Positions 48,856 through 51,882 of a stretch of DNA of 64,000 nt are shown piece after piece. The DNA comes from an uncultured Dehalococcoidia bacterium (GTDB taxonomy: Bacteria > Chloroflexota > Dehalococcoidia > Lucifugimonadales > CAZEDC01), in contig CAZEDC010000030.1 of NCBI GenBank assembly GCA_964510985.1, positions 1,920 through 65,919 on the forward strand, given 5' to 3'. The notes beneath the pieces were generated by a model. It saw nothing but the letters and a program-made list of their open reading frames with translations. It had not been told where the DNA came from and made no database searches. Positions within the stretch are counted from its first letter, which is position 1. Every line of letters starts with the position of its first letter. The translations under genes were made by a program, and so were the position numbers.

Positions 48856-48889
48856 ATAAGGGGCTGGCCCCCTCGGGCCAGCCCCTTAT
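48856..48889. terminator. Bidirectional hairpin terminator
   Basis: ATAAGGGGCTGGCCC-CCTC-GGGCCAGCCCCTTAT, a perfect 15-bp stem between convergent genes. Confidence 0.8.
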
Positions 48890-48912: not shown

Positions 48913-49641
48913 CTACTTGAGGATGTCCCACAGGCGCGTGGACTGCCAGCGCAGCACCCGCACGATTGTCGCCAGCGCCAGACCGATGCCTGTCAACAGC
49001 AGGGCCATGCCCGCGAACTTGAAGGGCTCCAGCCACAGCTTGACCGCGTTGATGGTACCGAGATCGGCCAGCAGGCCGCTCGTCGAAGGGTTGAGCTGAG
49101 TGGCGATGGAGTGGTTCCAGTAGTCGTAGGTCAGGGTGGCCAGGACGATGCCGATGATCACCGATGCGACCAGGAGCATCATGCCCATCATCATGAACAT
49201 GGGGAACAGCTGGGCGGTCATGGGAGGTTTGATGATCTTCACGTCAACGCCCAGGGCCTCCTGGACCCTGCCGCCGCCGGTCCTGAGCGCGCCCAGAATG
49301 GTGGCTAGCAGGAAGGTCACTCCGCCCAGAATCATCCCCAGGCCCAGGAATTTGAGCGTGGGGAGCCACACCTTGGTGGACTCGATGAAGGCCTTCTTGG
49401 TGGCCAGATCGGAGCCTGTACCCGCCGCCTCGCGAACGGACTTGGAGAAGCTGAAGTAGTCGGCGGCGGCGCTGGAGGCGAACAGACCGATGATAAAGGC
49501 CACCACCACGATCATGAACCCCATGCCGATAAAGGGCATCCACATCTTGCCGGCCATGGCCTGCATGCCGGTCACCTTTACCGGCAACTTGTCGCTGGTA
49601 AACAGAACCTCTGAATTGACTATCGTGGCATTAGCTGCCAT
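48913..49641 (-). CDS. Uncharacterised 4-TM membrane protein with internal duplication
   Basis: Two copies of TM-DY(F/W)..S-loop-I...K.WL...KF.G...L.G....LATI...LR; RBS AAGGAGG. Confidence 0.85.
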   Translation of the reverse strand: MAANATIVNSEVLFTSDKLPVKVTGMQAMAGKMWMPFIGMGFMIVVVAFIIGLFASSAAADYFSFSKSVREAAGTGSDLATKKAFIESTKVWLPTLKFLGLGMILGGVTFLLATILGALRTGGGRVQEALGVDVKIIKPPMTAQLFPMFMMMGMMLLVASVIIGIVLATLTYDYWNHSIATQLNPSTSGLLADLGTINAVKLWLEPFKFAGMALLLTGIGLALATIVRVLRWQSTRLWDILK

Positions 49642-49690
49642 TTTCGATTCCCTCCTTGGATTGCGTTTTCACTTTAGTTAACAGTCCGGG

Positions 49691-50083
49691 TTAGGCTTCC
49701 GACGGGTTGTCCCGGAGCGCCTTGAGCGCCGGCAGTGCGGCGGCCATGGTGTTGCCCCGGAGCCTGACGTTTCTCAGGATGTTGGCGAAGGCGACGCCGA
49801 AGCCCAACAGGAAGGTAGCCAGCCCAAGGAATGCGAAGGGCAATACCCAGTCCTTGACGGCCTCGATGCTGCCCAACTGGGACAGGATTCCGGTCTCGTC
49901 CGCGTCCCGGACCGCCTTGCTGTTGGTGAAGTAGTCGCCTGCCATCACGGCCAGGACTATCCACGTTACCGCGGATATCATGACAAACATCAGGCCCGCG
50001 ACCCAGAGCGCCCCGGCTATTTTTATGTGCGGCGCCGGTCTCTGGGCCTGTGCTCTCAGCTCATCGTTGCTTGGAATACTCAC
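49691..50083 (-). CDS. Uncharacterised 2-TM membrane protein, single copy of the same repeat
   Basis: GDYFTNSKAVRDA...IEAVKDWVLPFAFLG...ANILRNVR; GTG start after AAGGAGGT. Confidence 0.85.
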   Translation of the reverse strand: MSIPSNDELRAQAQRPAPHIKIAGALWVAGLMFVMISAVTWIVLAVMAGDYFTNSKAVRDADETGILSQLGSIEAVKDWVLPFAFLGLATFLLGFGVAFANILRNVRLRGNTMAAALPALKALRDNPSEA

Positions 50084-50218
50084 TTTTACCTCCTTAAACA
50101 ATTGGGATCACGGTGCGGGCCGCCTTAATATCTGGTTGGCGTCATGTCTCACCTCGTTATACGTTTTTTACAAAGGGCTCCTGATCGTTCGATACCTTCC
50201 ATGGTCGTGGCTGGTTCA

Positions 50219-50689
50219 TCAGTTAAAGGCCGTGTAGAATGCGCCCACCAGGACCCCGAATAAGATGTGGAGCATGAGGAAGCCCATCGCGGTCAGAGGG
50301 GGATAGCTAAGTGCAAAAACGCCCGGAGCGTCTATCTCCCTGTGTCTGATAGCGGGGTGCATCATCGGCAGCATGCCCAGGCCCATGCCCGAGACCATCC
50401 AGTGCACGAGCCCGAAGAGGATTCCCCAGGCGGCCAGCGAATCCTCTACGTCGAAGGCAACAAAAACGGCCACGTGTATCAGGCCGAACACGATGCTCAT
50501 CACAGCGTGTATCATCGCCCCGGCCATGTAGGCCATCTTGCCTTTTCTAAACATCATGGTCCCCAGCATGAGGAACAGGTTCATCCTCATCTGTCGGGGC
50601 ATCATGGCGATTCCCATATAGAGGAGCGCGCTCATGAGCGCTCCCCCTAATAGTCCCGCCAGAACGGCGGCTCCACCGTCAAAACTCAT
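50219..50689 (-). CDS. Met/His-rich 4-TM membrane protein
   Basis: 156 aa with 21 Met and 6 His by hand count; GAMIH, GLVHW and LHILFG within TM segments; RBS AGGAGG. Confidence 0.85.
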   Translation of the reverse strand: MSFDGGAAVLAGLLGGALMSALLYMGIAMMPRQMRMNLFLMLGTMMFRKGKMAYMAGAMIHAVMSIVFGLIHVAVFVAFDVEDSLAAWGILFGLVHWMVSGMGLGMLPMMHPAIRHREIDAPGVFALSYPPLTAMGFLMLHILFGVLVGAFYTAFN

Positions 50690-50769
50690 TCCGGTTCCCT
50701 CCTGACAATCGCTCCGGTCTACCGGTGCGCTGTCATTAAATGTGATGTGGTCGAGTTGCCCGGCGGTTC

Positions 50770-50785
50770 TGTGGTCTTGCATACA
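50770..50785. promoter_or_regulatory. Candidate Crp/Fnr-family operator in the divergent spacer
   Basis: TGTG-GTCTTGCA-TACA resembles TGTG-N8-CACA. Confidence 0.35.
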
Positions 50786-50853
50786 AAACATGCGCAACCT
50801 CAACCGGACATGGCACCGTATATCCATTTCCGTCGTCCGGCATCTAAGGGGAT

Positions 50854-51120
50854 GTGAAAGCATCATTGGGCGTGCTGAAGGTATTCATATCCGCGGGGTG
50901 CCGCGGTTGCAGGCGAGCCCTGGAACTGGTGGAGTTGGTGCGGAGACAGAGACCGAGCCTGAGCATCCAGGTGATCGATCTGTCTAAAGTGCCGGAGGCG
51001 GGGCTTGGCCTGGTATTCGCGGTGCCGACGTACGTTTACGAAAACAGGCCGATCTTCCTGGGCAACCCCAGCAGACAGGAACTCGAGGCCTGGCTGAACA
51101 CGCTTGGCGCGGAGGTGTGA
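50854..51120 (+). CDS. Small thioredoxin-fold protein (CxxC)
   Basis: VFISAGCRGC, VIDL, AVPT (cis-Pro position), FLGNP. Confidence 0.75.
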   Translation: MKASLGVLKVFISAGCRGCRRALELVELVRRQRPSLSIQVIDLSKVPEAGLGLVFAVPTYVYENRPIFLGNPSRQELEAWLNTLGAEV

Positions 51121-51123
51121 GTT

Positions 51124-51882
51124 ATGTGGCCGCTGCTGGATAAGGGCAGTAGCCGGTCGAAGGCGAACGTAGGCCCCGCACTGGAGCCCTCTCCGTTCGA
51201 GGCCGGCAAGGTGGAACTCCTGAGCGCCATGGACATCTTTCAGGACCTGGCCGAGCCTGAGATCGAGGCGCTGATGAGCGACGCCCCCATGCTTACCGCA
51301 CGCAAGGGCACCAGGTTTTACGGCGCCGAAGACGGCCCCGAGGTGCTGTTCCTGCTTAAGTCCGGCCGGGTCGAACTCTACCGCGAGTCACCGGACGGCA
51401 AGAAGCTCACGCTGGCCGTCGTGGAGCGGGGTACGTTCTTCGGGGAGATGTCGTTGGTGGGCCAGCGTCTGGTGGGGACGTGCGCGGTCGCCCTCGAGGA
51501 CAGCGTCATCTGCGCCCTGAGCCGCCACGACGTGCAATCCCTGACACTGGAGCACCCGGCGGTGGCATTTCGGATCATCGAGGTCATGGGCCGCCGGTTT
51601 CAGCAGGCCCGGAACGCCTTCCAGGAGATGGCCTTCAACGACCTGACGGGACGAGTCGCCGGCCTGCTGCTGCGGCTTGCCGACGATGGGACCGACGTTG
51701 TGGAAGGATATTCGCACCGAGACCTGGCAGCCATGTTAGGATGCCTCCGCGAAAGCCTCACGGTGGCCCTGGACCGGTTCAAGGAGAGCGACGCCCTGGC
51801 CATCGGCCGCAAGCGGATCGAGATAATCGACCGCGCCCAGCTCGAGAGGGTGGTCGGCCAGAGGACCGGTCTATCGGGCTGA
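51124..51882 (+). CDS. Crp/Fnr family transcriptional regulator
   Basis: LKSGRV, FFGEMSL, RVAGLLL, HRDLAAMLGCLRESLT HTH. Confidence 0.92.
   Translation: MWPLLDKGSSRSKANVGPALEPSPFEAGKVELLSAMDIFQDLAEPEIEALMSDAPMLTARKGTRFYGAEDGPEVLFLLKSGRVELYRESPDGKKLTLAVVERGTFFGEMSLVGQRLVGTCAVALEDSVICALSRHDVQSLTLEHPAVAFRIIEVMGRRFQQARNAFQEMAFNDLTGRVAGLLLRLADDGTDVVEGYSHRDLAAMLGCLRESLTVALDRFKESDALAIGRKRIEIIDRAQLERVVGQRTGLSG

Follow-up and report, generated by a model that had tools for sequence, protein, structure and literature searches.

A repeated two-helix membrane hairpin encoded by split and fused genes in marine Dehalococcoidia and Acidimicrobiia, and its possible assembly into a multi-hairpin complex

Two adjacent genes, here called S and L, are located on the minus strand of a stretch of 64,000 nucleotides (hereafter the window) of contig CAZEDC010000030.1, which belongs to the genome of an uncultured Dehalococcoidia bacterium (assembly GCA_964510985.1, positions 1,920 to 65,919). 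Gene S (49691..50083) encodes a protein of 130 amino acids (aa) with two membrane helices. Gene L (48913..49641), which starts at an ATG preceded by GGAGGG, encodes a protein of 242 aa whose four hydrophobic segments correspond to four membrane helices. The longest open reading frame (ORF) called for S extends to a TTG at 50101. Since a GGAGG precedes the GTG at 50083 and since the S homologues (422 proteins of about 126 aa) begin at the equivalent position, this GTG is most likely the start of S.

Both proteins are built from one repeated hairpin unit, present once in S (49751..50020, minus strand, delimited from the three-unit alignment and BLASTP) and twice in L. The first copy, L1 (49270..49557, minus strand), has conserved Met positions where its first membrane helix begins and the second, L2 (48916..49224, minus strand), a Met cluster (M150-M155) at the same place. 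A previous reading of the letters of this DNA (hereafter the original prediction) had claimed such a 2+1 architecture across two genes; its coordinates and the three peptide stretches that it quoted were all found on the minus strand, and the repeat is real. Indeed, BLASTP aligns S with L2 (42% identity over 79 aa, E 4e-17), S with L1 (33% over 96 aa, E 2e-11) and L1 with L2 (32.5% over 80 aa, E 4.4e-11). Furthermore, Smith-Waterman scores of the unit pairs range from 121 to 154, against a shuffle mean of 29 (standard deviation 5.5), and none of 1000 shuffles matches any pair; such shuffles preserve composition only and are therefore flattering for membrane proteins, but the conserved polar motifs of the loop are not a composition effect. 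The similarity of the repeats is hence statistically significant. The three-unit alignment has 17 invariant columns, among which are all the motifs listed by the original prediction (DY, S, K-x-W, F-x-G, G, A-x-I and R). A Lys located before the second membrane helix occurs in L1 and L2 and is missing in S, as had been noticed. The unit is about 95 aa long and thus longer than what had been quoted, since the first membrane helix also belongs to it. After this helix come a loop of about 35 aa, part of which is a short helix, and then the second membrane helix, which is rich in Gly/Ala and ends in Arg.

The best-conserved columns of the L family are G41, W92, P94, F98-L99-G100, G102, P140, G153, W203, G211 and Q233. 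In L, Met columns mark the beginning of the first membrane helix of each unit (M26/M33/M40/M43 in addition to the M150-M155 cluster), and Met represents 6.6% of the residues of L (family mean 5.1%, range 0.4-9.8%). In the S family, R59 and D60 are invariant. Neither the three-unit alignment nor the family alignments of the hairpin proteins have a conserved His or Cys that could bind a cofactor. Lys and Arg counts made by eye, which are weak for L, favour cytoplasmic N and C termini for both proteins. The AlphaFold2 (AF2) model of L (mean predicted local distance difference test score, pLDDT, 89.1; predicted template modelling score, pTM, 0.81) shows four long helices, two shorter ones in the loops and, ahead of each unit, a short strand. 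Together with the model of P0390, a relative described below in which the units are fused (pLDDT 84.7; six long helices and linker strands), it predicts with confidence all-helical hairpins joined by linker strands.

Homologues of L (414 proteins) and of S are unnamed or "hypothetical" and come from Chloroflexi/SAR202. A profile of the unit gave 268 matches at E<=0.001 against 1.84 billion representative proteins. Multi-repeat forms are among them: in the best 149 of these matches together with both window proteins, 94 proteins have a single near-complete unit, 33 have two and the other 24 have fragments only. Members of the family combine a significant match to the unit profile, a two-helix hairpin, a W before the second membrane helix, F-x-G and a terminal R/Q; besides S and L, they comprise a fused S-L1-L2 protein, a two-unit partner and five-hairpin chains. 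The distribution is patchy, the unit profile detecting the family in 4 of 401 sampled genomes of the phylum and the L profile in 13 of 151 genomes of the same order. The related loci stem from metagenome-assembled Dehalococcoidia/Chloroflexota genomes, and the DNA of the locus occurs in seawater and marine metagenomes, with no RNA data set among the matches listed. In the two-unit relatives, the first unit is closest to L1 of the window in all 29 cases and the second is closest to L2 in 26 of 29. Therefore, the duplication within L is old and the order of its units is fixed.

None of the reference collections that we searched contains a known relative. Pfam (E<=1) and NCBIfam have no family for L; for S, Pfam at the same threshold yields only sub-threshold DUF3040 and DUF7315 and NCBIfam nothing. 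Searches of Pfam, NCBIfam and PADLOC also gave nothing for the fused protein, the two-unit partner and the five-hairpin protein P0341, and the anti-phage defence profiles of PADLOC gave no family for S, L, the Met/His-rich protein encoded upstream of S, P0390 and P0391. Sequence profile searches of the PDB returned no match with alignment A5 and only compositional matches to designed coiled coils with alignment A2, while the ESM Atlas search retrieved only unnamed Chloroflexota and Actinomycetota clusters. Foldseek against the PDB gave no row at E<=0.001 for the model of L or of the fused protein. Exhaustive structure alignment gave best Z scores of 10.3 and 12.5, with generic or designed helical bundles as targets, and both values are below the informative level for helical bundles. 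A full-text literature search found nothing relevant to the family, which is not proof that the family is undescribed. As judged from these comparisons, the family is real, sizeable and unnamed, with no detectable kinship to curated families or solved structures in the searches run.

In all 15 related genome loci, an S-type gene is located immediately upstream of L on the same strand. Some copies are damaged: frameshifts affect two loci (L005 and L011), and in a third (L012, 4357-6025) the L gene is broken by an insertion with a 441-aa DDE transposase (DDE_Tnp_1_4, E 1e-62). This last insertion indicates that the system is dispensable in at least one lineage. Moreover, a distant and larger sister subfamily (at least 899 matches, in Acidimicrobiia and Dehalococcoidia), whose proteins have six membrane helices in about 313 aa, joins three hairpins in one chain. 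The S profile best matches the first hairpin and the tail of this subfamily (hhalign probability 94.3%, E 1e-7), and its last two hairpins are L1-like and L2-like. By these alignments the subfamily represents a natural fusion of S, L1 and L2 that keeps the gene order of the window, and P0251, which belongs to the long-loop branch, looks like a second S-L fusion. With the searches for L, S and the fused protein yielding 414, 422 and at least 899 proteins, the family counts well above 1000 proteins from bacteria that abound in the ocean; it occurs in marine Dehalococcoidia (SAR202-type) and Acidimicrobiia. Since S and L are linked in all 15 of these loci and fused in nature, apparently also in P0251, they probably act as one complex. 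The hetero-oligomer put forward by the original prediction is thus supported, if indirectly.

The threefold symmetry that had been proposed for it is another matter: it is not established and three hairpins are probably an incomplete set. In all 13 of the fused-gene loci that we examined, a two-unit gene is located directly downstream (3+2 hairpins), one of these loci being cut by a contig end and another frameshifted. Locus L010 carries the arrangement L'-S-L (2+1+2), in which the L paralogues are 65% identical. Furthermore, two proteins, P0341 (584 aa) and a 593-aa ORF of genome G451, hold five hairpins in a single chain, each with 10 hydrophobic segments and in the order L-L-single unit. 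The fused 3+2 loci, the 2+1+2 locus and the five-hairpin chains share the same cyclic order S, L1, L2, L1', L2'. Because five recurs by three different gene arrangements, an assembly of five hairpins is favoured, and we put it close to an even chance, on the lower side. Two further loci carry isolated short ORFs with one L2-like half-unit each, L054 (3437-3763, contig G451:C9, 108 aa) and L055 (2367-2654, contig G408:C1, 95 aa); these ORFs lie at a distance from the main locus and could be either solo hairpins or what is left of a gene.

We propose that S and L assemble into a single integral membrane complex made of homologous two-helix hairpins. Each L unit would be preceded by a short beta-strand and, on what is predicted to be the cytoplasmic side, by a helix that starts with a Met-rich segment, and the loop of about 35 aa of each unit would face outward. 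The hairpins would line up next to each other and close into a ring or bundle, most likely of five, i.e. one S and two L, so that L would be used twice where a single L gene exists. This ring would form a transmembrane conduit, its outer mouth carrying the conserved Asp-Tyr and Lys-x-Trp and its inner half being lined by the conserved Met positions. A membrane complex of S and L with five hairpins and a conduit is, as a whole, the best explanation that we can offer, and a tentative one to which we give somewhat less than an even chance; the conduit or transport function taken by itself is rather doubtful.

Several observations weigh against this five-hairpin conduit. Only 1+2 units are encoded by 14 of the 15 split-type loci, and the genome of the window, which is 92% complete, has no unit other than S, L1 and L2, a count that would fit a three-hairpin complex just as well; the 1:2 ratio of S to L is purely one that we infer. 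In a tree of 112 units (96 columns), S, L1 and L2 do not form clean clades (22 label changes, against a minimum of 2) and good support is limited to 13 of 109 branches; fragments of genes among the single-unit rows account for part of this. The outward-loop motifs DY and SK-VR-D/E, strong in the split family, are missing from the shorter loops of the fused subfamily and are therefore not essential to a shared core mechanism. No charged residue is conserved in the middle of the membrane in all units. Moreover, gene neighbourhoods outside the module vary and point to no substrate. Finally, the fused S-L1-L2 chain folds by itself into a compact bundle in its AF2 model (pTM 0.84), and its structural neighbours include a designed helical barrel (8qkd_A, Z 12.5, below the informative level).

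Some of these points are what would be expected if one S and one L closed a pseudo-threefold bundle of six helices that is the whole unit, the additional two-unit genes being accessory or separate. The gene ratio is 1:1 in the window and in the 14 close loci mentioned above, S-L1-L2 exists as a single polypeptide whose model makes a six-helix, three-hairpin bundle possible, and another neighbour of this model, 3o3x_A, is a five-helix version of the gp41 trimer of hairpins (Z 10.5, root-mean-square deviation 4.6 over 190 residues), although it and the 8qkd_A barrel are both below significance for helical bundles. However, a bundle of three does not account for the two-unit gene adjacent to the fused gene in all 13 examined loci, for single chains that have five hairpins and not three or six, or for the duplication of L around S in L010, and it leaves the recurrence of five by three gene arrangements unexplained. 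We consider it possible, on the unlikely side.

If the five-hairpin ring is a conduit, its Met positions raise the question of soft metals. The original prediction had compared the architecture with Ctr-type copper channels. Ctr proteins form homotrimers that conduct Cu(I); each of their subunits crosses the membrane three times, with MxxxM in the second helix and GxxxG in the third. Met motifs bind Cu(I) in Ctr1, CusA, CopC and SilE. The likeness to Ctr1 would consist of conserved Met on one face of a membrane helix and of an oligomeric pore, which is our proposal here, and the conserved Met positions are real: those of the first helix of L1 are spaced i, i+4, i+11 and i+14, L2 has its Met cluster, and in the fused family columns M150/M153/M156 and M229/M240/M245 are conserved at 93-100%, versus 51-75% for their L-family counterparts; the fused family also has an invariant His140. 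Homology to Ctr is not supported: no Pfam match at E<=1 links L to Ctr or to any copper family, the units have two helices and not three, and the Met positions are at the start of the first membrane helix, whereas those of Ctr are in the second. A Ctr-like conduit for Cu+ or Ag+, in which Met ladders and a Met/His-rich partner would pass Cu(I), would draw on the Met content of L and on the neighbouring protein with 13.5% Met and HxM/MxxxM-type strings. However, none of the 159 neighbour ORFs (35+23+21+41+35+4) scanned against Pfam belongs to a copper-handling family, the five-hairpin single chains show no obvious Met ladder, and the Met enrichment of the family is moderate on average and widely spread. 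A soft-metal conduit is thus improbable.

Repeated hairpins of variable number per chain are also a feature of the proteolipid c/K subunits of F/V/A-type ATPases, which carry one, two, three or more hairpins per chain, each hairpin conserving an ion-binding carboxylate in its C-terminal helix. The family studied here resembles them in that its paralogues differ in hairpin number and are split or fused according to lineage, and the best Foldseek row for L is the K ring of the Enterococcus hirae V-ATPase (2bl2_A, E 0.084, template modelling scores 0.23/0.33), which is not significant. The second membrane helix lacks a conserved carboxylate, which makes an ion-translocating rotor ring unlikely: no acidic column was found in this helix across the three units or in the L and S families, and E191 and E277 are restricted to the fused subfamily. 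Moreover, there is no ATP-synt_C match at E<=1 and no ATPase gene among the scanned neighbours, and the long conserved loop would face outward. We regard a rotor ring as highly improbable.

Other membrane assemblies offer parallels for the proposed ring. MscL is a homopentamer of hairpins with two membrane helices; it is similar to S in size (about 130 aa) and in predicted topology (helix, outward loop, helix and cytoplasmic tail), and five hairpins likewise make 10 membrane helices. In contrast with MscL, the ring proposed here would be heteromeric and partly covalently linked, and S and L have no Pfam or NCBIfam match to MscL. The FliP/FliQ/FliR type III export gate combines one-, two- and three-hairpin proteins in one helical complex, the third resembling a fusion of the others, and thus follows the same logic of one-, two- and fused three-hairpin proteins. 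The difference is that no Bac_export match and no nearby flagellar or injectisome gene were found for the hairpin family. Neither MscL nor the export gate is among the fold-search rows listed, and for MscL absence from the list does not exclude the fold. Duplication, splitting and fusion of hairpins is hence a design principle known from other membrane assemblies, while the family itself matches no named family, solved structure or function.

The hairpin genes do not stand alone in the window. Upstream of S and on the same strand, a gene (50219..50689) encodes a Met/His-rich membrane protein of 156 aa with four membrane helices, 21 Met and 6 His. It belongs to no known family and has a weak match to DUF1440 (E 0.014). 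This gene is likely to be the first of a three-gene operon with S and L. A terminator-like hairpin directly 3' of the L stop codon (48856..48889, minus strand; 15 pairs, 10 of them G-C, followed by a T run) is the likely end of this operon. Between the upstream same-strand genes, the scan gave only stems of 5-6 pairs and no terminator-like site as strong as the one with 15 pairs. The complex would hence be made from the same operon as the Met/His-rich four-helix protein. Divergently from the operon, on the plus strand, lie a gene for a small thioredoxin-like protein with a CxxC motif (Thioredoxin_3, 50854..51120) and a gene for a Crp/Fnr-family regulator (51124..51882), the latter identified by its cNMP_binding and HTH_Crp_2 domains.

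The Met-rich gene adjoins split-type hairpin genes in the window and in L001, L002, L003, L005, L008 and L044, and fused-type genes in L068 and L069. Within the 151-genome sample of the order, it is present in 10 of the 13 hairpin-positive genomes versus 11 of the 138 hairpin-negative ones; since related genomes are not independent samples, the Fisher p of 6e-8 for this co-occurrence is an overstatement. An alignment of five Met-rich homologues shows conservation of five His and of several HxM/MxxxM strings. Among eight further loci where the Met-rich gene is found elsewhere, DUF3179 genes are adjacent in two and AhpC/TSA-type genes in two. One homologue (L067, 1501-1959, contig G446:C3) contains seven in-frame TGA codons, for which an alternative genetic code was considered and rejected, this being a doubly frameshifted copy. 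Thioredoxin_3 genes recur beside the module, not only in the window but also in L002, L004, L006, L009 and L069. Two loci adjoin genes for molybdoenzymes: in L010 (2591-4279), a Molybdopterin oxidoreductase gene is directly upstream of the hairpin genes, and in L040 (36-4093), a cluster with Fer4_11, NarJ-like and EB_dh (ethylbenzene-dehydrogenase-type gamma subunit) genes is convergent with them.

This neighbourhood could be taken to mean that the hairpin proteins form no channel and serve as structural parts or anchors of a membrane module for redox reactions or oxidative stress, organised around the Met/His-rich protein, possibly a haem- or metal-binding electron carrier, and thioredoxin-like partners. 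The recurring Thioredoxin_3 genes, the AhpC/TSA-type neighbours, the five conserved His, the strong co-occurrence of the Met-rich gene with the hairpin family and the two molybdoenzyme loci all go in this direction. However, the absence of any conserved His or Cys from the hairpin proteins speaks against it, as do the 3 of 13 hairpin-positive genomes in which the Met-rich gene is missing and the many loci, including most of the fused ones, that have neither a Met-rich nor a thioredoxin gene nearby. Furthermore, two molybdoenzyme loci of about 39 are too few to call a link. Such a redox role is fairly unlikely in our view.

Besides its protein-coding genes, the module contains a conserved DNA site. 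The intergenic region 50690-50853, between the divergent thioredoxin-Crp and Met-rich-S-L genes, includes an almost invariant block of about 21 nucleotides, within which lies the pattern TGTA-N8-(T/C)ACA (here TGTATGCAAGACCACA, 50770..50785, minus strand). The block occurs in one copy in each of 10 distinct loci. A Crp gene adjoins it in all eight loci whose flank is long enough, the flanks of L005 and L044 being too short, and in the loci devoid of the Met-rich gene (L004, L006 and L009) the block is upstream of S. A riboswitch or leader RNA upstream of the operon was considered and rejected: no Rfam match is better than E 1.9 and there is no consensus structure (0 pairs). The conservation is therefore read as acting at the DNA level. 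The block would resemble the NtcA-type consensus GTA-N8-TAC. It is a candidate operator of the adjacent Crp-family regulator that would serve both divergent promoters, and this regulator would probably control the operon through it. The exact site has only one copy in the genome of the window, and a genome-wide regulon search allowing three mismatches gave 12 matches, which is not above the reversed-pattern control (20).

The module arrangement is kept in genome G510 (locus L069), where the thioredoxin and then the Crp gene are divergent from the Met-rich gene and then the hairpin genes. Its Crp protein is 71% identical to that of the window and its hairpin genes are of the fused 3+2 type. Since fused 3+2 genes occupy an otherwise identical module in this genome, split and fused encodings appear to be interchangeable in one genomic slot. 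Crp-family genes flank the hairpin genes at three other loci as well (L029, L037 and L038), with 23-33% identity. These data, if taken together with the proposed ring, would describe a new modular pseudo-pentameric family with 10 membrane helices, i.e. one ring in four encodings (1+2, 2+1+2, 3+2 and single chain), with a Met-lined conduit, a Met/His-rich partner and a dedicated Crp/NtcA-type regulator. We hold this full picture to be possible, though rather doubtful in its entirety. Were the conduit confirmed, it would represent a new class of channel or transporter in deep-ocean Chloroflexota, widespread in marine SAR202 and Acidimicrobiia. The natural series of 1+2, 2+1+2, 3+2 and five-in-one genes provides ready constructs on how a heteromeric ring sets the order and number of its subunits, and the conserved local regulator with its candidate operator makes the physiological trigger testable.

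The remainder of the window encodes complex I subunits, sucCD, a 2-oxoacid dehydrogenase complex, lipB, a sulfatase and CoA-transferases, i.e. housekeeping genes and genes typical of SAR202-type bacteria. Two other observations concern signalling genes found with S/L relatives. In L039 (4473-8529, contig G250:C36), genes for a GAF histidine kinase and for a response regulator precede an S/L pair that has the same orientation. In P0269 (274 aa), a receiver-domain N-terminus is joined to an S unit; this may be a true fusion or a read-through artefact.

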